DNA of 58,049 bases. Origin: a virus. The DNA is taken from the IMG/VR virus record IMGVR_UViG_3300045988_088962; one strand, written 5' to 3'. Shown here piece after piece: positions 3,273 to 49,311 of the stretch. Made by a program: the position numbers and the translations under genes. Under the pieces are notes generated by a model. It was not told the origin of the DNA. It was given only the letters and a program-made list of their open reading frames with translations, and ran no database searches. Position 1 is the stretch's first letter. The number at the start of each line of letters is the position of its first letter.

Positions 3273-5798
3273 TTAAAGCAAAATCTTTTTGTCGTTACCG
3301 ACTTTAGTCGTAGACGGAAGCGTAAAAGCGGGGCTGAACTTGTTGGAACTCCACGCGTTATACGATTCTGAATAGAAAAACGTCTTGCCTCCATTATTTG
3401 TTCCGAGACTGTATGTTCCAACAAGCTGGCCTTGAATGGGATTCCCGGAATAATCTCGCCATGCAGGGGAGCGTGACCATCTGCGGATAAGACGATTGAC
3501 GGAATCATCATAAGACTGAACAAAAACATTTCGGGTTTGCTTTGGTAGTACAGAACCTTCTTTTTTGAAAAATGGGTTACTGCCATTTACATAAACATCT
3601 GCGTTTTTGTCGTCCGGGTCAAACATCTCATAAATAGACGGGAGAAAAACACTGCGAGAAAGCGTTCTGATTTCCGTAGTGCTACCGCCTACCGTGTAAT
3701 AGAAAGAGGTAAGCCCCATTGCGGACTTGACGGTGTCGCTAAATCTGTTTGCGTAATCTCCCTTCAACAGCCTGTCGATGGAGCTTCCGTCGTATGTATT
3801 GACGTGCGTCTGGTTCCACACTGTTTCAGCAAGAGGTTCTTTCCTGATAAGAAGTGTTCTCCCCGGACCATTTAAGCCAGGCTCATACCCATGTTTTGCG
3901 ACAACAAACTCTACATCCGCACCACTTTCTTGAATGTAAACAGACGATCCTTCCGGCATATCCGACAAAGACGGAGCCTGACTGATAACGGTACACTTTG
4001 CAGATACGGAAGACACGAAGGCTGTGACTACGGCATCTCCACTGGAAACAAAAGAAATGTCGCAAACAGAAACGCCGCCTTTGTTGGAAACGACGGAAAT
4101 GGAAACAACGTCGGGAGGAGATGCTTCCCATCCGATTGCTGGGGAATCCTCTGAGGAAGGGACAAGCGTTGCGGTTAAACGAACGGTCTCTCCAGGAGCC
4201 ACAAAAACGGAGTCCTTATCAAGTCTAAGGGCACTCGCACTTTCCACCATATATCCTTCCATCGTACCTTTAAAACATCCGTTAAAGGTATACTTGGCAT
4301 CCGTAACGAGAACGTTCGATGCATATCCAAACTGATGGTTTGCTCTAACAAAAGACAACGCATCAATATGGGGGCTTGCACGAAATTCCAGGTTTACCTT
4401 TCTTCTGTTAGAAAGAAGTGCGTATGTTTCGGTCAACGCATTTTTTGCGCTAGAAGATATAGATTTCGATATAAGCGGATTATTGATGCTTTGGGTCGCT
4501 CCGTTCCCACTAGCTCCGGCTGGATAAAACACGGATTCGCCGCCAACCTTGCACGATACGTTTTTTATTTTTGTCGAAAACGTTATTTCTGGGTATTTAA
4601 AGCTATTCAAGAGCGATATTTCCTCAATATCAGACCTCGTGACTGGAACAAGAGGAACACGTTCAATGTGAATGACCCCATCTCTGGATTGGTAAAGAGC
4701 CATCCCAGCTGCGTTTGCAGCAAGCTGAAGAACGTCTGCGTTTTTATAAGAAGAAGCATCGGAGGAAATGTCGCAAGAATAGTTCTTTAATTCTTCCGAA
4801 ATTTCGTAAGAGATTCCGGGAACATCCAGAAGCTCTAATGCATCAAAACACATCTGATAAAGCGTTCCACTCGTGTGCCCAGTATAAATGGAATCTTGGA
4901 GGAAAGATAGGGCGTCCCTGGCATCAAACGATGCCGTTATGCCATTCGCCGGAATTGTCCATCCAGAAAGAAAGAACTTCCCTCCGTCAATCCATTCGAC
5001 CGCATCTCCAATGTCCATGCCGTATTGAACTGAAATCTCCTGACGTTCATAAAGATACCGATAAAGTCCACCTGGATTTACCGGGTTCCAGCGTTGTTCG
5101 GAGTTATCAACAGAAAACGAAACGGAATCTTTGGAAAGCTGCCCAGAAATCGGGTCGCGTTTTGATTCATGCGTATAAGAAAGCAAATCCGCTTTGCTAA
5201 ATTGGACACGCAGACCAAATTCAACTTGCTCCGCTCTTGCTCTGCGGCCCTGGATGCACCACTCTAAAATTTCCAAAGTGATTGAATCATATCCGGAAAT
5301 CTCAAAATCTACAGAGGATTCAACAGACTGGTTGCCGTCAACTTGTTTTGTTGCAACAAGCTCGCTGCCGTTATAAACCGTCAATTTAAAAGATTTTGCA
5401 TATTCATTTAAAGCGGACGACCACACGATTGTAATTCCGGGGATTCTTTCAGTGTGTGTTTTGCTGAAAGAGAAAGTGATAATCGGATGGTTTGTGTCAG
5501 AAACACAATCCATACTTAAATACCCAGCGTTCTCGTATGGCTCTGAACCTGGGACCAAAAGTTTGCTCCCGTCAAGGACCCACAAATTAGGTTCTCCGGT
5601 GGCATAATTGGCCAAAGAAGCAGAATCCAGGTCTGTGACAGACAACGTGTTGCTGAATAAAGCCTGGTTGGAAGAGCTGGCAATGGCGTCTGCTTGGGCC
5701 TTATCGTCAGAGACGTGGTAAGTGATGCGAACAAACATCTCCGGAACAAGTGTCTTGTCGTATTGTTCAAGCCACTTGTCGGAAGGCAGAAAGCCCAT
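3273..5798 (-). CDS. Tail-tip / minor structural protein (Tal-like) with an Ig-like (Big_2-like) segment.
   Basis: 841 aa, the second gene after the tape measure. It has the stretch APGETVRLTATLVPS...VVTAF and a C-terminal RWSRSPAW...SPAFTLP motif. Confidence 0.7.
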   Translation of the reverse strand: MGFLPSDKWLEQYDKTLVPEMFVRITYHVSDDKAQADAIASSSNQALFSNTLSVTDLDSASLANYATGEPNLWVLDGSKLLVPGSEPYENAGYLSMDCVSDTNHPIITFSFSKTHTERIPGITIVWSSALNEYAKSFKLTVYNGSELVATKQVDGNQSVESSVDFEISGYDSITLEILEWCIQGRRARAEQVEFGLRVQFSKADLLSYTHESKRDPISGQLSKDSVSFSVDNSEQRWNPVNPGGLYRYLYERQEISVQYGMDIGDAVEWIDGGKFFLSGWTIPANGITASFDARDALSFLQDSIYTGHTSGTLYQMCFDALELLDVPGISYEISEELKNYSCDISSDASSYKNADVLQLAANAAGMALYQSRDGVIHIERVPLVPVTRSDIEEISLLNSFKYPEITFSTKIKNVSCKVGGESVFYPAGASGNGATQSINNPLISKSISSSAKNALTETYALLSNRRKVNLEFRASPHIDALSFVRANHQFGYASNVLVTDAKYTFNGCFKGTMEGYMVESASALRLDKDSVFVAPGETVRLTATLVPSSEDSPAIGWEASPPDVVSISVVSNKGGVSVCDISFVSSGDAVVTAFVSSVSAKCTVISQAPSLSDMPEGSSVYIQESGADVEFVVAKHGYEPGLNGPGRTLLIRKEPLAETVWNQTHVNTYDGSSIDRLLKGDYANRFSDTVKSAMGLTSFYYTVGGSTTEIRTLSRSVFLPSIYEMFDPDDKNADVYVNGSNPFFKKEGSVLPKQTRNVFVQSYDDSVNRLIRRWSRSPAWRDYSGNPIQGQLVGTYSLGTNNGGKTFFYSESYNAWSSNKFSPAFTLPSTTKVGNDKKILL

Positions 5799-27360: not shown

Positions 27361-28261
27361 ATAGTCGCAGCGTTCCGGCTGGAATAGTCGTAACAGCTTC
27401 TGGAATAGTCGTAGTTTCTCCCGGCGGATAGTCGTGGGATAGTCGTAAAGTCGTCAGATGACTAGCTTTTGAAAGTCCTATATATCGTATAGTAACAAGC
27501 AGTCCGCTGATAGTCGTAGATCAATAGTCGTAGCGTTTTCTTGCGAATTGCCGTCAAATAGTCGTGTAATTTTTGTGTGAAATAGTCGTTTGCCTTTTAG
27601 GAAAAGAGAGGCGCGATAGTCGATAAGCCATCCGACCACCCCCAAAATCAATATATGTCAAGACACCTGTCAATTTTATTCTCATCTAGCCATACCAAAT
27701 TCGTATGCCAACAGTACTTATTATAATATACGCTTATATATCCTAGTAACTATCTAGGGATTATTCTGCTGAAATAGTCGTATCATCCGATTCGGTTTGT
27801 TCCTGCTCGATTTAATTCCCAGTAACACGCTATGGTATATCGTTCAATCCATAGCATTCTGCTAGGAATAGTATATGCAACATTTGTACATATCAAACCG
27901 ACTACAAAATGAAGTCAATTCTCCATGCGAAATAGTCGTAGACTGTCCACCAGTCCGAACCTCACGCTAGTTCTTTCCTATGGTATGCTCTACTGGCTAA
28001 CGGTCTGGCTTTTGGAGATAGAGGGTTGTAGGGAGAAAGAACCTTTGCAAAACATCCGATTGTCGTTTCCGGTTGTCGCAGTTGTCGCACCATTTTTGCG
28101 TGGGGGCCTCAAACAATTTATTTGTTTGAGGGGGAAGTTAAGGGGATTATAGGAGGTAATAGGGGTTATAGGGGAAAGAGGGGGAAGAAAGGGGGGAAGA
28201 TTGGATGCAAACGCATACAAGTGCATTCATTTGCATTCAAACGCATCTTTCCGATAGTCGC
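27361..28261 (+). repeat. Iteron field, the candidate phage origin of replication: at least 13 same-orientation copies of ATAGTCG(T/C).
   Basis: Copies start at 27361, 27384, 27405, 27428, 27439, 27510, 27524, 27558, 27582, 27616, 27774, 27932 and 28254. An AT-rich block lies at about 27640-27760. The field is adjacent to the replication genes. Confidence 0.7.
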
Positions 28262-28882: not shown

Positions 28883-30106
28883 TTACATCCACACACATTC
28901 TTTGAACTGCTGTGTCTCCATCTGAAACGTGATGTCCAGTGAGCCTACGTTGCCCTCTTTGTTCTTCTCAAGCGCAAAGTGATAATGCTCTTCTGGTCTC
29001 TTTTGCGTTTTCACTTTCTGTGCCAGCAAGATGATCGCATCTGCGTCCTGCTCGATCTGTCCGCTCTCTCGTAGGTCTGCGGCGGTCGGTGGGATGCCCG
29101 CTCTTGCGGTCTCTCGATTGAGCTGCGCCAGTGCCACCACCAGCGTTCCCGTGGACTGTGCGAACTCATGCAGTGCTATGCTGATTTCCGTGACGGCACT
29201 GTATCGGTCTTTCGCTCCGGCTTGATGGATAAGCTGCAAATAGTCGATGAACACCACTTTTGCCTGCATCCTGATGGACTGCGTTCTAATCCACCCAACG
29301 CTCTTACCAGCAGCAGAACGGACGAATAGCGGATATTTCTTGATAGCTGCCAGTCGGTCAAGCTCGTTAATGCTGACTGTTTTGTTTTTGACTGTGTGCA
29401 GCGGTACGCCTAGCTGGTTTGCGATGATACGAGCGTAGAGCGTGTCTGGGTCAGTCTCTAGGCTGAAATACGCCACCTTGCGTCCGCTCTTGGCTATTTC
29501 ACAGGCAAGTTGCAGTGACAGAGCGGTCTTACCAGCAGACGGTCTGCCGCCGATCACAACGAAGTTGCCCGGCACAAGATGCAAGTTGTTATCCAGCACT
29601 CTGAGCCCTGTGCTGATATACTCCGGCTTATCATCCAGCTTGCGGATGTAATTGTCTATACCATCGCACATCGGGATGAAATCGCTTCTCTCGCTGTGCA
29701 GGTTGATAGCTTCGCCTAGCTGCTCATAGATGCCCGTCAAGTCTGCGTATCGGGTCGAGCCATCAACGATTTTGAAAGCAAGCCCTCTGGCTCTGGTCAA
29801 TGCTGCCTGTTCCTTGACGATTCTAGCCCAGCCCTGCATCATGTCATGGGTGACGTTGCGGATGAACTCTGCACCAAAGGCATCTAGGCATTCGCCCATA
29901 GCTTTCTTGCAGTTATCGTACCGGCCCATGACTTCTACCGGGTTCCACTTGTCATTGTGTTCCCAATAGCCAAGAATGGCAGCGAATGTATCACGCAGTT
30001 CTGGGCAAAAATCGTCGATTTTAAGGTCTTGTAGCACATCGGCGTATTCCGAGAACGTGAGGACTGCTCCCAGCAGGATGTATTGAATCTGATTTTCAAT
30101 ATTCAC
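28883..30106 (-). CDS. dnaB: Replicative DNA helicase (DnaB-like).
   Basis: It has Walker A GGRPSAGKTA and a DnaB-type N-domain. The GTG start overlaps the upstream stop (GTGA). Confidence 0.85.
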   Translation of the reverse strand: MNIENQIQYILLGAVLTFSEYADVLQDLKIDDFCPELRDTFAAILGYWEHNDKWNPVEVMGRYDNCKKAMGECLDAFGAEFIRNVTHDMMQGWARIVKEQAALTRARGLAFKIVDGSTRYADLTGIYEQLGEAINLHSERSDFIPMCDGIDNYIRKLDDKPEYISTGLRVLDNNLHLVPGNFVVIGGRPSAGKTALSLQLACEIAKSGRKVAYFSLETDPDTLYARIIANQLGVPLHTVKNKTVSINELDRLAAIKKYPLFVRSAAGKSVGWIRTQSIRMQAKVVFIDYLQLIHQAGAKDRYSAVTEISIALHEFAQSTGTLVVALAQLNRETARAGIPPTAADLRESGQIEQDADAIILLAQKVKTQKRPEEHYHFALEKNKEGNVGSLDITFQMETQQFKECVWM

Positions 30107-39165: not shown

Positions 39166-39774
39166 TTAGCCCTCCTTCGGCTGTTTCTGAGCACAGTCCC
39201 AACACAGAACGCGCCCAAAGCGTTTCTTTGTGCTTCTTGCAGTTTCCAGCGGTGATACAGTTCGATTGTTGTACTGGACAGGCTGCAACTGTTTTCCACA
39301 ACAAGCGCACGGAGGAATATTTTCTGCCTCCGCTTGCTTTTGGACAGGCTTGCTTGCCCTGCTTGTGGTCTGCTTCTGGTACTCGTCCGTGTCAGCGTCC
39401 TTTGTATCGTCAATGCAGAACAGACCGTTCAGAGCGTACTTTCTGGCGTAGCTACTAGACGTTCCAGTCACCTGCGCTGCATCCATCTTGGTTTTTTGCT
39501 CCGGTTCTCTTGCGTAAGCAGTAACCGTTACGCATCCACCATCCAGAGCTTCCACCTTTGCGGTCGCTTCGATGTAATGCCACCCCTCTAACACTTTAGG
39601 TTCATCAGAAAGGGTAAGAAGCAAACCGTGTTCTTTCAGAATTGGTTTGACTGCTTCCAAAATGTCCTCACAAGAGCGATACTTGTAACCGCCAAATGTG
39701 TTCATCTGCCCCTTCGGGGCTTTCAACTCTGATTGAACAGCCATCAAGGCTTCATGAATTTTGCTGTTGTCCAT
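39166..39774 (-). CDS. ERF-family single-strand annealing recombinase with a C-terminal Zn finger.
   Basis: It has IHEALMAVQSELKAPKGQMNTFGGYKYRSCEDILEAVKPIL and lies adjacent to ssb. Confidence 0.7.
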   Translation of the reverse strand: MDNSKIHEALMAVQSELKAPKGQMNTFGGYKYRSCEDILEAVKPILKEHGLLLTLSDEPKVLEGWHYIEATAKVEALDGGCVTVTAYAREPEQKTKMDAAQVTGTSSSYARKYALNGLFCIDDTKDADTDEYQKQTTSRASKPVQKQAEAENIPPCACCGKQLQPVQYNNRTVSPLETARSTKKRFGRVLCWDCAQKQPKEG

Positions 39775-39841
39775 ACGTTTCCTTTCTTCGGCTTCATTAG
39801 GCTTCATTATTAATACTTTGGCTTAATATGGCTGTACAAAA

Positions 39842-45654: not shown

Positions 45655-45697
45655 TTGTCGAATTATCGCAGTTTTTGAGGAACATTTTGTCCACGTT

Positions 45698-46193
45698 TAT
45701 CCACTTTTTGTACACCTATCGGGCAAATCTACCTTGTCATTCCGTCCCCCATAGGCTATGAACCGACAATATTTGCGCATAATAAACAACGAATTAGCGC
45801 TAATTTATCGTTTGCGATTAAGCAGCTTGTCAATCCGTCCCCCATAACACCGGCTTAAAATTTTTTTATCCACTTTTTGTACACGTTAGGTAAACCTAAC
45901 CGTTAAGCGTTTCAACCTTTCGGATGTTAAGCATCTGTTTATTTAGCAGTATTCGCTTTGTGTTTTCCACTTTTCAGGAGAAAAAGAAAAGATTTTGTGG
46001 AAAATTTTCTTCTTCTGCTATTAGTAGAAGTTATTTTATAATCTTGTTAATAGTCTTGTTTTATATAATGTAAAGAGGTGTACAAAAAATGGATATAGGT
46101 GTACAGATTGTGGAAATGGGTGTACGAAATGTGGACGGTTAGGTGTACAAAAAGTGGAAACAGGTGTACGTTAACTATTGACTTGTACACCTG
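45698..46193. repeat. Rep iterons (GGTGTAC-N7-8-GTGGA), a plasmid-type origin.
   Basis: Forward copies start at 46077, 46098, 46119, 46142 and 46163 (21-23 bp spacing). Inverted copies lie at 45698-45716, 45867-45884 and 46183-46193. The inverted copies contain the DnaA-box-like TTATCCACT. Confidence 0.75.
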
Positions 46194-46206
46194 TTTGCGA
46201 TATACT
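46178..46206 (+). promoter_or_regulatory. rep promoter overlapped by an inverted iteron half-site.
   Basis: TTGACT-17-TATACT, with a spacer that contains TGTACACCTG. Confidence 0.6.
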
Positions 46207-46223: not shown

Positions 46224-47318
46224 GTGATAAGAGTGTCCGATATTAAAGGCGGGAACTTGGTTGAAAAGAGCCGACAGCTTGTTTGGGCAAAGTTCACTGA
46301 TTATACAGCAGGAGAGCTTCGGTTGCTTGAAGTGTATCTTAGCCGTATCAATCCGAGAGACCCCGAAACTTCAACGGTTCAGTTTACGTTACAAGAATAT
46401 TGCGAATTTTTGGGGTTGAAAATCAACTCTAGGAATTTGAAAGCGCAGGTCAAGCATTTCATCGACAACTCCGTTGAAGTTCCTAGAGGCGACGGTTCAG
46501 GCTCGTTTGACTTGTATCCCCTGTTCAGTAGAGCAACGGTAAACTTTGAACCTAGTTTGATGAATATTACTGTGTCATTGTGTTGCAATCCGCTTCTGCA
46601 ACCTGTTTTCTTCGACATTGCGGAGCGTGGATATGTCAAGTACCGCTTGCGCTACACAGCGAATATGAAATCGCAGTATAGCATTTTGCTGTATTCAATT
46701 CTCCGAGAGTTCATCGGACGTGGCGTGAGCCAGCCCGAAATTACGTTGGATAGATTAAGGGAACAGCTTGGCGCAAGAGAACCTAGCTATCAAGAGTTCA
46801 AGCATCTTAGGCGGCGTGTCATTGATATTGCGGTAGCTGAAATAAACGAAGTATCAGACCTGTGCGTTGAATATGACAAGGTCATGAGAGGTCGCAATGC
46901 GGTTGCTGTGAAGTTCGATGTAGCTTTCAAGTCTAATGAGCCAGTCATAGACGTGGAAGCTAACGAGGTTGAAAGCGTAGAGCTAAAAGATGTTCCAAAG
47001 AGCCAACGACCTGCCAGAAAGCCCCGCAGTGGCGCATATGAGGATGTGGATTGGGCATCTATTGCGCCGGAGATGTCTAAAAGCCAGTGTATCTTGACTG
47101 CAAAACTGGTGGCAAAGAGATTGCCGGAGAAGTATCCGAACATCAAGCCTAACAAGAAAAAAGAAGCTGTTGTGAACATCATTGAGAATGCATACAGGAT
47201 TCTTGTCAGTGAGCGACTTGATAGGATTGAAAAAGACCCCGGCGCTTATATGTACTCAATTTTGAAAGAAGCAGACATTGACGATTATGCTACGTTTGAC
47301 GATAGCTTCTTGAAGTAG
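46224..47318 (+). CDS. rep: Plasmid replication initiator (Rep_3/RepB-like).
   Basis: LVEKSRQLVWAKFTDYTAGELRLLEVYLSRINPRD...FTLQEYCEFLGL resembles the Rep_3 N-domain, and iterons lie immediately upstream. It has a GTG start (46224 or 46233) after AGGAGG. Confidence 0.75.
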   Translation: MIRVSDIKGGNLVEKSRQLVWAKFTDYTAGELRLLEVYLSRINPRDPETSTVQFTLQEYCEFLGLKINSRNLKAQVKHFIDNSVEVPRGDGSGSFDLYPLFSRATVNFEPSLMNITVSLCCNPLLQPVFFDIAERGYVKYRLRYTANMKSQYSILLYSILREFIGRGVSQPEITLDRLREQLGAREPSYQEFKHLRRRVIDIAVAEINEVSDLCVEYDKVMRGRNAVAVKFDVAFKSNEPVIDVEANEVESVELKDVPKSQRPARKPRSGAYEDVDWASIAPEMSKSQCILTAKLVAKRLPEKYPNIKPNKKKEAVVNIIENAYRILVSERLDRIEKDPGAYMYSILKEADIDDYATFDDSFLK

Positions 47319-47378
47319 TCAGATACAACGCATTATGCAGAATGAGCACAGCGAGCAAATAAAGCAGAAAGGAGCGGT

Positions 47379-47660: not shown

Positions 47661-48437
47661 ATGGCAAAAATCATAGCGGTCGCCAACCAGAAGGGCGGCA
47701 CAGGAAAGACCACCACAAGCACCTGTCTGGCTGGTGCGTTGCAGTTGCTTGGCAAGAAGGTGTTGCTGGTGGACTGCGATGCCCAGTGCAACGCAACGGA
47801 CACATACGGCGCACAGACAGAGGACGTGTGCACTCTGTTCGATGTAATGACCCGGCAAGGTACAGTAGAGGAAGGAATTCAGCACTGCGAAGCCGGTGAC
47901 ATTCTGCCGTCAGACAACGCATTGAAGGACATTGACGAGCAGCTTGTCCGGGACATTGGCAAGAACTTCCGGCTGCGTGAAGCGCTGGAATCCGTGTCTG
48001 CACAGTACGATTACATCGTTCTGGACACTCCCCCGCAGCTCGGTCTTGCGCTTGTAAACGCTCTGATCGCCGCTAACAGCATCATCGTTCCCATTACAGC
48101 AGACCGCTATGCGCTTGCCGGATTGAGCCAACTTTCGCAGACCATCGGCGATGTTCGCAGATACTTCAACCCGACTTTGAAGATTGAAGGTCTGCTTCTG
48201 AACCAGTACAAGAGCCGTGAGAACCTGTCCAAAGAGGTTGTAGAGCAGCTTCCTGTGATTGCAGAAAGCATGGGAACGAGGCTTTTGGGCGTAAAGATTA
48301 GACCGTCTATGGGTGTTCGTAAGGCGCAGGCAGAGCGGCACAGCCTGTTTAGCGGCGACACGGCAAAGAGCACCAGCGCAGAGGACTTTAAGGCTTTGGC
48401 GCAGATGATTGTAGAGGGGAAAGAAAAATGCGACTGA
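47661..48437 (+). CDS. parA: ParA/Soj-family partition ATPase.
   Basis: It has the deviant Walker A AVANQKGGTGKTTT and is 258 aa long. Confidence 0.9.
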   Translation: MAKIIAVANQKGGTGKTTTSTCLAGALQLLGKKVLLVDCDAQCNATDTYGAQTEDVCTLFDVMTRQGTVEEGIQHCEAGDILPSDNALKDIDEQLVRDIGKNFRLREALESVSAQYDYIVLDTPPQLGLALVNALIAANSIIVPITADRYALAGLSQLSQTIGDVRRYFNPTLKIEGLLLNQYKSRENLSKEVVEQLPVIAESMGTRLLGVKIRPSMGVRKAQAERHSLFSGDTAKSTSAEDFKALAQMIVEGKEKCD

Positions 48438-48739
48438 TTGATGCAGAAAATTTAAAAGAAACATACAAAAGCTGGATTTCAGAATATATTCAAAAAGGCA
48501 ACAATTCTTCTAAAGTAGAAGCAACCAGAAAATGTATCATGATGATAGATTATATAAATTCTTATAACGAAGAAGACGCAAGGCCTTCTGCGGAATGGGT
48601 TGTTACGGACGAAGAGAGAGATTGTGCTTGTTGCAGTAGGTGTGGATGGTATATCGACAGACCGAATGCTTCGTTTGCAATTTCAAGATATAAATATTGC
48701 CCAAATTGTGGTGCATGGATGGGAGGAATTGTGAGATGA
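48428..48739 (+). CDS. Hypothetical Zn-ribbon protein within the par operon.
   Basis: CACCSRCG...CPNCG. It overlaps both neighbouring genes. Confidence 0.55.
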   Translation: MRLIDAENLKETYKSWISEYIQKGNNSSKVEATRKCIMMIDYINSYNEEDARPSAEWVVTDEERDCACCSRCGWYIDRPNASFAISRYKYCPNCGAWMGGIVR

Positions 48740-49308
48740 AGTCAACCAGCAAAAAAACATCCGGTTTGTTGGGCGGGTTTGACTTCCAGCCTGTTTTTTC
48801 GGAACAGACATTAAGCCGAAGTGAACCAAAGGAAGAAGAAGTAAGCCAAACAAAGCCGAATAATGCCGAACAAGCACCGATTAAGCCTAGTGGAGCCACA
48901 GACAGCCATGCACGGCCGAGTGAAGCAGAATTAAGCAGTATTAAGCCGAAGCGAGTCAAAGACAGCGAAAGACAGCCAAATGATGCCGTATTAGGCGAAG
49001 GTAAGCCGAAGAAGCTGAAACAGGCGAAAGAAACGAAGCGGCTGATTGAACAGGGCAATATTCCCGGCGCACTAGCCGAAGCTGGCTTGACAAAGAAAAA
49101 AATCCCGATGCCGGAATCGCATCAGGGCGTTGCAAGCGGTGACGGCAAGCGTTCTAAGCGCATTACCATCCTTATGAGCGAGGAAGAACGCAAGTACATC
49201 AACCGTGAAGCCAGACGGCACGGAATGACGATTGGACAGTTCGTGTACGCTCTGGCTGCTGCTGCGGCAGACGGGAAGATTGAACTGGAGGATTTCTTGG
49301 AGGATTGA
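48736..49308 (+). CDS. RHH (ParG/CopG-like) candidate centromere-binding protein with a repeat-containing N-terminal tail.
   Basis: The C-terminus KRITILMSEEERKYINREARRHGMTIGQFVYALAAAA is RHH-like. GGGAGG lies before the ATG at 48736, and there is an alternative internal ATG at 49108. Confidence 0.6.
   Translation: MKSTSKKTSGLLGGFDFQPVFSEQTLSRSEPKEEEVSQTKPNNAEQAPIKPSGATDSHARPSEAELSSIKPKRVKDSERQPNDAVLGEGKPKKLKQAKETKRLIEQGNIPGALAEAGLTKKKIPMPESHQGVASGDGKRSKRITILMSEEERKYINREARRHGMTIGQFVYALAAAAADGKIELEDFLED
48811..49020 (+). repeat. Twenty-one tandem degenerate 10-bp units (nnaAGCCgaa), a candidate partition centromere embedded in the coding sequence.
   Basis: Read directly: ttaagccgaa gtgaaccaaa ggaagaagaa gtaagccaaa caaagccgaa taatgccgaa ... 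gtaagccgaa gaagctgaaa. Confidence 0.7.
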
Positions 49309-49311
49309 TGT

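Follow-up and report, generated by a model that had tools for sequence, protein, structure and literature searches.

A candidate type Ib-like centromere or operator array lying in frame within the gene of its putative RHH binding protein in a human-gut phage

The par2 locus of pB171 (ParA/ParB, with parC1 and parC2) is a type Ib partition system in which an RHH protein acts on the ATPase through its flexible N-terminal tail and degenerate arrays of short boxes, which double as operator, lie on both sides of the operon, the downstream one non-coding, and in B. subtilis a parS site lies inside spo0J, the gene of its own ParB. Also of type Ib is the ParF/ParG/parH system of TP228, in which the flexible N-terminal tail of an RHH centromere-binding protein acts on the ATPase and the centromere, which is also the operator, is a degenerate array of short boxes (PMC3130281). 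On pCXC100 of Leifsonia xyli, an RHH ParB binds nine unspaced, degenerate 9-bp direct repeats (AGNTGGAAA) cooperatively (PMC3074162). The centromere site parT of SCP2 is located inside the gene of its own ParB (PMC12260392), and dispersed centromere-like sites are described for pMF1 and, as cited there, for N15, RK2 and pSM19035 (PMC3235114).

The window analysed here is the whole 58,049-nt stretch of the virus record IMGVR_UViG_3300045988_088962. It carries a ParA/RHH gene pair in which a long array of short repeats forms part of the coding sequence of the RHH protein. The reading preferred here, with a probability of roughly 0.65, is that of a type Ib-like centromere or operator array that forms an in-frame part of the gene of the protein binding it. 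The features of the par locus are as follows.

47661..48437, + strand: parA, encoding a 258-aa Walker-type partition ATPase (Pfam, PHROG 164)
48428..48739, + strand: variable 103-aa zinc-ribbon-like ORF between parA and the RHH gene, present in 6 of 82 related loci
48736..49308, + strand: gene of the candidate centromere-binding protein (CBP, 190 aa), a 573-nt ORF compared in 82 loci
48736..48810, + strand: part of that gene encoding the conserved N-terminal peptide MKSTSKKTSGLLGGFDFQPVFSEQT, with a coding substitution pattern
48811..49020, + strand: candidate intragenic centromere or operator array, 21 contiguous 10-bp direct repeats of consensus kwAAGCCrAA
49147..49305, + strand: predicted C-terminal RHH DNA-binding domain, residues 138-190 (Pfam NikA-like, Foldseek)

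ParA matches Pfam AAA_31 on residues 2-175 (7.8e-54), CbiA on residues 5-227 (3.9e-25) and PHROG 164, 'ParA-like partition protein' (1.1e-57). It is without an N-terminal DNA-binding domain and has the size that defines type Ib ATPases (~200-260 aa, no type Ia N-terminal domain); the small CBP gene downstream of parA is likewise as in type Ib. The parA gene precedes the RHH gene in 81 of 82 related loci, with no gap between them in some, and it lies next to every diverged homologue examined: the parA and CBP genes overlap or are no more than 3 nt apart in L168, L169, L172, L173 and L174, and L170 has one ORF between them. The first-pass annotation had placed the array inside the open frame of an RHH protein that follows parA; the array is indeed inside that frame, but in the window the 103-aa ORF intervenes between the two genes. 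The product of this ORF has a weak Zn_Ribbon_1 match and falls in PHROG 22543, whose function is not annotated, and comparison of the loci places it outside the conserved parA/CBP pair.

From its N- to its C-terminus, CBP consists of the conserved peptide, a disordered linker encoded by the array, a helical hairpin and the RHH domain. AlphaFold2 gives residues 19-89 a pLDDT below 50 and predicts helices at 92-105, 109-115, 149-161 and 166-178. The RHH domain is itself a prediction. The sole Pfam match of CBP at E <= 0.01 is NikA-like (E 2.3e-5), at 24.9 bits under the curated cut-off of 27 bits; the same match was made by 15 of 24 members of the CBP family. The best Foldseek matches are RHH proteins (CopG 1ea4, CdbA, Arc, AtaR and NikA), that of CopG having a target TM-score of 0.86 and an rmsd of 1.0 A over 41 columns, with E-values for these RHH matches above 1, which are not significant for so small a domain. 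The predicted beta-strand, which precedes the helices at 149-161 and 166-178, is K141-R-I-T-I-L-M147, in which R142 and M147 are invariant. Pfam detected no ParG, ParB-family or HTH domain in CBP, and no match was found in the PDB sequence set, family profile included; the description of the protein as 'ParG-like' is thus apt as an analogy of architecture and not as a statement of sequence homology.

Two other identities were considered and rejected. A relaxosome accessory protein of the NikA/MobC type does not suit a gene whose neighbours are Rep_3, ParA and phage genes, and no relaxase was present among the called genes of the homologue loci. A ParB-CTPase/parS system was dismissed because CBP has no ParB-family or HTH domain and the repeats of the array are direct, not palindromic. 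Relatives were found in IMG/VR (498) and among protein clusters (831). DNA similarity searches returned nothing from plasmids and two unannotated faecal contigs alone from a phage collection, and a collection of species-representative genomes contained no relative by protein or by family profile. A search of IMG/VR for relatives of P0132 returned nothing; the DNA of P0132 was obtained by exact-protein look-up.

The array occupies 210 bp, or 37% of the CBP ORF, and its 21 head-to-tail units are those that had been listed from the sequence at first sight. Matches to the consensus at unit positions 1-10 number 9, 8, 14, 15, 18, 17, 15, 10, 16 and 17 (each out of 21 units), which defines the core as A3 A4 G5 C6 C7. 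A9 A10. Units 3, 7 and 21 fit poorly. The self-identity of the array is 0.55, 0.50, 0.47, 0.49, 0.53 and 0.58 at lags of 10, 20, 30, 40, 50 and 60, and ~0.25 at lags outside the 10-bp series. Autocorrelation at lags 10 and 30, a check proposed in the first-pass annotation, gave 0.55 and 0.47; as the signal at the shorter lag is no weaker, the array is built of 10-bp DNA units rather than of 30-bp units that encode a 10-aa peptide. When all 58 kb were scanned in sliding segments of 210 bp, the array scored 0.516 against a mean of 0.252 (sd 0.025) and was the top lag-10 signal, ~10 sd over background, the next unrelated region reaching 0.369. Searched to 4 kb around the gene, 82 loci yielded no AAGCC array besides the one inside the CBP ORF.

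Since the period is not a multiple of 3, one motif is translated in all three phases, and the array encodes CBP residues 26-95 as seven decapeptides of the form xSxxKPxxAE, in agreement with the original reading. The units whose first base falls on codon position 3 do avoid TTAAGCC, as had been observed; this avoidance had been taken as a sign of dual constraint, but it follows automatically from the openness of the frame.

The array is translated. The CBP ORF of 573 nt has no indels and no stops in 82 related phage loci. All 76 distinct genes have this frame open, each other frame being stopped in some or all of them, and not one stop arises from the 171 variant alleles (P ~1e-4). The rarer CBP variants of 180 and 170 aa depart from the usual length in whole steps of 30 bp, equal to three units. 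The proposal that the array is constrained as coding sequence is upheld on all these counts. Upstream of the array, the start codon ATG at 48736 overlaps the preceding stop codon (ATGA), has GGAGG 9 nt before it, and is the point at which homology to the relatives begins. In the 24 codons ahead of the array, pi is 0.133 at first, 0.020 at second and 0.217 at third codon positions, which is a coding substitution pattern, and the N-terminal peptide, MKxTSKKxSGLLG, is conserved in all diverged homologues. The DNA encoding this peptide is 98% identical between two CBP types whose ParA proteins are 96-98% identical, and the peptide is presumed to be the ParA-interacting tail.

It had also been suggested that the true start might be the in-frame ATG at 49108, which would make the array a non-coding parC in front of a short RHH gene. 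Something of the kind exists in L083 and L084, which have a 5'-truncated copy (106 aa, from GTG) with ~6 units ahead of it. For the window this alternative is scarcely credible and was rejected: the absence of stops and indels and the stepping of length by 30-bp multiples extend through the array, the 24 N-terminal codons evolve as coding sequence and persist in distant homologues, the GGAGG ribosome-binding site and the ATGA overlap belong to 48736, and no Shine-Dalgarno-like sequence precedes 49108. An antisense ORF of 151 aa (48603-49058) was also considered as the source of constraint and rejected, being interrupted by stops in 48 of 76 relatives.

Several properties of the array would be expected if the repeats were a by-product of slippage that lengthens a fast-evolving disordered linker, with no function in cis and with a 10-bp period that is an accident of the founding duplication. 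The segment encoded by the array is predicted to be disordered and is the most variable part of CBP, copy number varies in a minority of relatives (the 180- and 170-aa forms), and homologues have middle regions of unlike length and composition. Substitution patterns make this explanation quite unlikely. Pooled over 76 distinct genes, the NG86 dS of the array is 0.227 and that of the other three parts of the gene 0.46-0.52; dN/dS is 0.35 versus 0.04-0.14. Two-fold synonymous sites have a pi of 0.055 in the array and 0.162 elsewhere (Mann-Whitney p = 8.5e-7), four-fold sites 0.179 and 0.265 (p = 0.027), whereas amino-acid variability is 0.100 in the array and 0.037 elsewhere (p = 5e-12). Where the unit is informative, pi is 0.048 for bases in agreement with the motif (n=116) and 0.198 for bases that deviate from it (n=31; p = 1.3e-6), a contrast present at each codon position. 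At third positions, it amounts to 0.066 versus 0.227. The moderate effect of unit position on per-site diversity (eta-squared 0.116, p = 0.003) was equalled by that of period 6, and therefore weight is put on the comparison of matching and deviating bases and on the synonymous-site tests.

Synonymous recoding according to the phage's own codon usage lowered the lag-10-family identity from 0.516 to 0.318 +/- 0.025 (z = 7.9), none of 2000 recoded versions reaching the observed value. The array thus differs from an ordinary peptide repeat in that recoding abolishes its periodicity, its synonymous sites are less variable and its amino acids are more so. These patterns indicate selection on the array at the level of a DNA motif, as the first-pass annotation had supposed, with synonymous diversity suppressed and conservation following the motif rather than the codon. 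Slippage leaves unexplained the halved dS, the near invariance of two-fold synonymous sites, the four-fold stronger conservation of motif bases at all codon positions, and the unequal information over the ten unit positions. Nor does it explain why ~10-bp periods recur independently with different motifs, although a 10-bp unit can change in copy number in frame only by threes, or why the motifs occur also in non-coding DNA upstream of parA.

Homologues at 35-50% identity, all of them beside parA, have arrays of their own in the corresponding part of the gene. The array of L170 has 12 units of 10 bp (GTCAGwGGAA), those of L169 and L172 have ~10 and ~24 units of 10 bp (TACAGCGrAr), that of L083 has 19 units of 9 bp (CAGAWTGAR), and that of L173 has units of ~20 bp; the middle regions that contain them vary in both length and composition. 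In L169, L170, L172 and L173, no lag-10 signal of the locus exceeds that of the array, and the z-scores upon recoding are 8.1 (L170), 6.6 (L172) and 4.6 (L169). The arrangement of an array within the gene is general in the family. Motif and beta-strand vary together: RITI[LI]M pairs with [AC]AGC[CG]GAA, RVSV[PA]M with CAGAAT, and RMAIAM with GTCAGwGGAA, in a covariation that comprises five lineages only. ParA can stay 96-98% identical while the array motif and the RHH beta-strand change together, and in L083 and L084 an array remnant travels with its RHH domain. The assignment of the array to the RHH protein, already made at first sight, is strengthened by these lineage-specific arrays and by the reappearance of the motif upstream of parA.

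Smaller clusters of such units, here called satellites, are found outside the main arrays. Two are present in the window.

39787..39826, - strand: satellite of four phased 10-bp units (TTAAGCCAAA, GTATTAATAA, TGAAGCCTAA and TGAAGCCGAA) in the leader, just upstream of an Erf-like gene
47320..47373, + strand: six phased 9-bp units (CAGATACAA, CGCATTATG, CAGAATGAG, CACAGCGAG, CAAATAAAG and CAGAAAGGA), identified by PWM match

The first of these lies ahead of the start of the Erf-like gene at 39774 and has a phased-4 PWM score of 30.7, the next best being 9.7 on its strand and 13.8 on the other. It is conserved in about half of 80 erf loci, where it varies at unit positions 4 and 8 just as the array does, and it is non-coding because one relative has an in-frame stop. 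Overlap of this cluster with a promoter was rejected: neither the cluster nor the array received a sigma-70-like call, and relatives do not conserve the -10-like TATTAAT of the window. The second cluster, which lies between rep and orf88 and ahead of the par genes, fits the 9-bp array motif of the other CBP type (P0127 type). It is the best phased match of the window to the L083-array PWM (k=5 23.5, shuffle maximum 9.8) and was found in 27 of 82 window-type loci as well as in L083, L084 and L087. In three lineages the motif of the main array recurs in a small non-coding cluster ahead of parA or of the par operon. L170 possesses 6-7 non-coding units between rep and parA (phased PWM 40.6, shuffle maximum 16.6), L173 has three CACTTTG boxes with 10-bp spacing directly upstream of parA, and the P0127 type has 4-5 units after rep and before the par genes. 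The satellite cluster of L169 is located inside a 171-aa ORF.

No covariation was found between the erf-upstream cluster and CBP type. The AAGCC cluster is missing from 5 of 13 window-type contigs and present in the L113/L085 phage, whose 8.5-kb locus has only the other CBP type. The independence of this satellite from CBP type and the window's own 9-bp cluster of the other type are points against the preferred reading, and both would be accommodated if the array were bound by a different protein (a phage regulator, the Rep initiator or a host factor) and its place in the RHH gene were incidental. A different binder is nonetheless unlikely: the Rep iterons are a distinct ~21-bp repeat (AGGTGTACAAAAAGTGGA at 45682-46169), the co-change of motif and RHH beta-strand in five lineages can take place while ParA remains 96-98% identical, and the remnant in L083 and L084 moves with its RHH domain.

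Like the big arrays, all five satellites run in the sense direction of the local transcript (chance ~1 in 32 for the satellites); two of the satellites are inverted on the DNA with respect to the array and are still sense for the local transcript. Each occupies a leader or falls in the initial 100-150 nt of an ORF. Satellites in the sense orientation only are not expected from a DNA-binding model, and a role at the level of RNA is possible, in which the sense motif in the 5' parts of transcripts would be recognized by an RNA-binding factor or would affect translation or stability. Such a role is very unlikely as the explanation of the array. Periods of 10, 20 and 9 nt fit the known spacings of RHH proteins on DNA, for which RNA recognition gives no reason; the element is always in or beside an RHH gene, with a motif that shifts with the RHH beta-strand; and the purine-rich sense motifs may just mirror strand composition.

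If the array is the centromere or operator of the RHH protein encoded around it, the following mechanism may be envisaged for a phage with plasmid-type replication and partition genes. The array would be the cis element of a type Ib-like ParA/RHH module and would offer 21 degenerate 10-bp sites to the RHH domain of CBP. RHH dimers would load cooperatively on successive units, approximately one per helical turn, and form a nucleoprotein filament. From the filament each bound CBP would extend its conserved N-terminal peptide on a long disordered tether, and this peptide would engage nucleoid-bound ParA, whereby the replicon would be positioned and segregated. With CBP bound on its own transcription unit, feedback on par expression is probable. 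The array bases, read in three phases, specify the tether itself, residues 26-95 of CBP, which would need to be little more than open to translation and flexible. We infer that the RHH protein binds the array and that the array serves as a centromere rather than as an operator only; one stretch of DNA is probably both coding sequence and centromere or operator.

A more ambitious version may be put forward tentatively, as somewhat more doubtful than not: that a single 210-bp stretch is the main centromere, a sensor through which CBP, by occupying it, throttles transcription of its own gene, and the coding sequence of the tether between the ParA-activating peptide and the DNA-binding domain, and that throughout the family the array and RHH domain form a swappable cassette. 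If so, exchange of the cassette would change partition incompatibility while ParA and the N-terminal peptide remain constant, and the design would be family-wide in abundant human-gut phages that have replication and partition genes of plasmid type, not an oddity of a single genome.

The preferred reading, if true, would make this a clear, large-scale natural instance of dual coding, in which the main constraint on more than one third of a gene comes from its being a DNA array bound by protein, one that is read in all three phases and whose product peptide serves as a disordered linker. It locates the likely centromere of a very common group of uncultured human-gut phages and suggests that partition specificity is exchanged as a cassette. 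The locus also provides a compact model (rep-ori, parA and one gene) for the assembly of RHH segrosomes on long arrays, and a warning for annotation that low-complexity 'linkers' of small DNA-binding proteins can be cis elements.

Compared with known systems, the window type departs from type Ib in that its candidate centromere is not in non-coding DNA. L170 and L173 resemble pB171 in having one array upstream and one downstream of parA, but the downstream arrays of TP228 and pB171 are non-coding, whereas that of the window encodes CBP residues 26-95. Like SCP2 parT and the parS site in spo0J, the array is a centromere site, here a candidate one, within the coding sequence of its own (candidate) binding protein; those sites are single palindromes of 16-18 bp that occupy about six codons and are bound by HTH proteins of the ParB family, in contrast to a direct-repeat array of 210 bp. 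With pCXC100 the window shares a small ParA and, after it, a small CBP whose RHH domain is C-terminal, as well as short, unspaced, modestly conserved repeats, an architecture common to the 9- and 10-bp arrays of the family; pCXC100 has nine units and such repeats are generally near the par operon, whereas the window has 21 units in the CBP frame (PMC3074162). No sequence homology was detected between the pCXC100 system and that of the window. Additional putative site clusters in ORFs, promoters or leaders, such as the erf-upstream cluster and that of L169, are reminiscent of pMF1, N15, RK2 and pSM19035, but the main sites of those replicons are non-coding, whereas the main array of the phage lies within the CBP gene.

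The window, about 58 kb long, is the genome of a tailed phage and has genes for a tape-measure protein, large terminase, portal, major head protein, tail fibre, DnaB-like helicase and Erf-like annealing protein. Its relatives are abundant in human-gut viromes: IMG/VR holds 498 matching stretches, on contigs mostly of 55-60 kb, GenBank holds two related faecal 'Bacteriophage sp.' contigs, and the protein relatives form 831 clusters at E <= 0.001; no relative was found among species-representative genomes. The plus strand carries a plasmid-type maintenance block that encodes, in order, Rep_3, an 88-aa ORF, parA, a 103-aa ORF and a 190-aa ORF, the last being a candidate centromere-binding protein (CBP). 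The features discussed here are:

39826-39787, minus strand, erf-leader cluster: four phased AAGCC units, a PWM hit in the leader of the Erf-like gene
45682-45719 and 45865-45884, inverted copies of ~21-bp iterons (AGGTGTACAAAAAGTGGA)
46072-46169, direct array of the same iterons
46178-46206, sigma-70-like promoter (TTGACT-17-TATACT), just 5' of rep
46224-47318, plus strand, Rep_3 initiator, flanked by the direct and inverted iterons of 45682-46169
47320-47373, intergenic between rep and orf88, upstream of the par genes: six phased 9-bp units (CAnAnnnAG)
between rep and parA, plus strand, 88-aa ORF (orf88)
47661-48437, plus strand, parA, 258 aa
48428-48739, plus strand, zinc-ribbon-like ORF (CxxC...CxxC), 103 aa, between parA and the CBP gene
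48736-49308, plus strand, CBP gene, 190 aa, with a predicted C-terminal ribbon-helix-helix (RHH) domain
48811-49020, inside the CBP gene, array of 21 contiguous 10-bp units

Positions 45682-46204 constitute a plasmid-type origin adjoining the Rep_3 initiator gene, and the promoter upstream of rep is the best, and the sole good promoter-like site, of the block. The 103-aa ORF is found in only 6 of 82 related loci; in other relatives the space between parA and the CBP gene is occupied by different small ORFs or is without one. From this presence and absence, its position looks like a variable insertion slot.

The array units share the core A3 A4 G5 C6 C7. A9 A10. Self-identity of the array is 0.55, 0.50, 0.47, 0.49, 0.53 and 0.58 at lags 10 to 60, compared with about 0.25 elsewhere, and a scan of the window gives the array the strongest lag-10 signal, about 10 sd above the mean, so that the 21-unit repeat described in the first-pass annotation is confirmed. 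The autocorrelation check proposed there is also informative: because lag 10 (0.55) is not weaker than lag 30 (0.47), what repeats is a 10-bp stretch of DNA rather than a 10-aa peptide. Second to the array in lag-10 strength within the window comes 28071-28246, where short tandem repeats of period 9-19 bp are clustered (AGGGGATTATAGGGGAAAG, then CAAACGCATT about four times), ~640 bp away from the end of the ORF for the DnaB-like helicase (28883-30106).

The array is translated. At 48736, the ATG shares bases with the stop codon of the ORF before it (ATGA) and is preceded by GGAGG at 9 nt, and in two relatives whose upstream gene differs, homology begins at this start codon. The CBP gene is 573 nt long, with no indel and no stop, in all 82 related loci; its frame alone is open in all 76 distinct sequences, an antisense 151-aa ORF over the array being broken in 48 of them. 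Stops are created by none of the 171 alleles of array variants, as against 5.2% of possible changes (P about 1e-4). The 24 codons on the 5' side of the array show coding-type evolution (pi is 0.133 at codon position 1, 0.020 at position 2 and 0.217 at position 3) and encode an MKxTSKKxSGLLG... peptide that is kept in every distant homologue. Rarer CBP length variants of 180 and 170 aa are offset by multiples of 30 bp, equal to three units. A true start at 49108 preceded by a non-coding parC, which had been suggested as an alternative to an array within the open RHH-protein frame, is therefore rejected on the start signals, the open frame without indels, the coding-type evolution and conserved peptide of the N-terminal codons, and the 30-bp length steps.

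Pooled dS is 0.227 in the array versus 0.46-0.52 in the three other segments of the CBP gene, dN/dS is 0.35 versus 0.04-0.14, and amino acids vary 2.7 times as much in the array as elsewhere. At two-fold synonymous sites, pi is 0.055 in the array and 0.162 in parA and the remainder of the CBP gene taken together (p = 8.5e-7); 61% of such sites are invariant in the array as against 24% elsewhere, and Lys, Glu and Ser codons each individually show reduced synonymous diversity. At informative unit positions, motif-matching bases have a pi of 0.048 and deviating bases 0.198 (p = 1.3e-6), a contrast present at codon positions 1, 2 and 3; at third positions, deviating bases (0.227) resemble neutral sites elsewhere, whereas motif-matching bases are at 0.066. 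When the array peptide is recoded synonymously according to the codon usage of the phage, the periodicity drops from 0.516 to 0.318 +/- 0.025 (z = 7.9); among the natural CBP genes, 76 of 76 keep it (0.50-0.57). Judged from these substitution patterns, the array is under selection as DNA, with conservation that tracks the motif, and the dual constraint first proposed, on a DNA repeat and on coding sequence, is well founded.

The CBP family is narrow, comprising 22 clusters at 50% identity. Its diverged members have the N-terminal peptide and RHH domain in common and differ in the middle, and parA adjoins the CBP gene in every one examined. In the middle, these members too have short-period DNA arrays, each lineage of related phage loci (L numbers, with their proteins in brackets) having its own motif:

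L170 (P0132), GTCAGwGGAA, 12 units of 10 bp
L169 and L172 (P0157 and P0148), TACAGCGrAr, ~10 and ~24 units of 10 bp, respectively
L083 (P0127), CAGAWTGAR, 19 units of 9 bp
L173 (P0136), CACTTyAnrGCAGAATr, units of ~20 bp

The suggested comparison of DNA phase with peptide repeat among homologues favours the DNA: recoding gives z = 8.1 for L170, 6.6 for L172 and 4.6 for L169, and the recurring peptides TAE/K, YSE and QR of L169 and L172 are the TACAGCGrAr motif in three reading phases. Only weak periodicity is present in the CBP genes of L168 and L174 (P0153 and P0144). This most distant lineage is in a different gene context: in L168 its surroundings include an integrase and an HTH_36 protein, and in L174 its contig includes the genes for ribosomal proteins L13 and S9.

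Across lineages, the array motif changes with the RHH beta-strand: RITI[LI]M accompanies [AC]AGC[CG]GAA, RVSV[PA]M accompanies CAGAAT, and RMAIAM accompanies GTCAGwGGAA. By alignment with the DNA-contacting residues of CopG (KRLTITL), the alternate residues R-T-L, R-S-P/A and R-A-A would be the ones directed at the bases. ParA can be 96-98% identical between two CBP types that are themselves only 43% identical, which suggests that the array and RHH domain together behave as a specificity module. Another homologue, P0138 (309 aa), has the beta-strand KRITILM as in the window protein, and a long unrelated N-terminal region replaces its ParA-tail and array.

In two P0127-type loci, the P0127-type CBP gene and a 77-aa zinc-ribbon ORF are followed by a second RHH gene (L083 4594-5219; L084 about 4900-5185). 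This second gene is a window-type copy truncated at its 5' end, consisting of the last ~6 AAGCC units, linker and RHH domain; in L083 it is 91% identical to window 48957-49309, with a 106-aa ORF from GTG 4898. Window 48735-48794 is the same as the start of the P0127-type gene. The truncated copies and this shared stretch indicate that the two types are related by a replacement whose endpoints fall within the N-terminal coding part and within the array, and that an array and its RHH domain move together. In L083, the truncated copy is followed by a 293-aa ORF that has a P-loop-like motif, GQSGCGKT.

Lineage motifs are also found in non-coding DNA at the canonical place, upstream of parA or the par genes. 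The rep-parA intergenic region of L170 is filled by 6-7 phased units of its own motif, scoring 40.6 with a PWM built from the intragenic units alone (shuffle maximum 16.6, next-best site 8.8). In L173, three CACTTTG boxes with 10-bp spacing and then three A-AATG boxes are located just 5' of parA, and five of the seven CACTTTG words of the locus are in the cluster upstream of parA or in the CBP gene. P0127-type phages have a 9-bp cluster after rep, and L169 has a 5-unit cluster within the 5' part of another ORF.

The best explanation, with a probability of roughly two in three, is a type Ib-like partition module whose CBP gene contains its own candidate binding-site array. DNA-level selection, lineage-specific arrays and upstream motifs thus lend comparative support, short of proof, to the intragenic centromere of the first-pass annotation. 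With the array as centromere, RHH dimers would bind successive units cooperatively. CBP residues 19-89 are predicted to be disordered (pLDDT below 50), and this tether of ~70 residues, which is encoded by the candidate binding sites themselves, would carry the N-terminal peptide of each bound CBP and let it reach nucleoid-bound ParA. Binding within its own transcription unit may feed back on expression.

Two satellites (small clusters of array-like units outside the CBP arrays) fit this partition module poorly. The erf-leader cluster scores 30.7, versus 9.7 for the next site on that strand and 13.8 on the other strand, and varies among relatives at unit positions 4 and 8, as the array does; its presence does not track CBP type. 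The short intergenic cassette that bears it follows any of three different genes, and the cluster is missing from about half of erf loci, in which the upstream gene overlaps the erf start. The cluster at 47320-47373, kept in 27 of 82 window-type loci, matches the motif of the P0127-type 9-bp intragenic array and not the window's own AAGCC array. Each of the five satellites reads in the sense direction of its local transcript, a uniformity that is not predicted by a DNA-binding model; action of the repeats at the RNA level is therefore retained as a minor rival to the partition module.

Short degenerate direct-repeat arrays for RHH partition proteins, dispersed sites, and a single parS in a parB gene are already known. 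B. subtilis spo0J has a single palindromic parS within the gene of its own ParB. The same arrangement is found in SCP2 parT (PMC12260392), and dispersed extra sites are found in pMF1 (PMC3235114). Models for the cooperative RHH loading proposed on the window array are pCXC100, in which RHH dimers bind nine unspaced degenerate 9-bp repeats cooperatively (PMC3074162), and parH, in which they bind degenerate boxes cooperatively (PMC3130281). In the literature searched, no report was found of a long RHH-type repeat array in frame within a CBP gene, of such an array with a period not divisible by three and hence one motif in three phases, or of such an in-gene design kept across a family with lineage-specific motifs. 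Whereas the parS in the parB genes of SCP2 and spo0J is a single palindrome, the window has a long direct-repeat array in its CBP gene.
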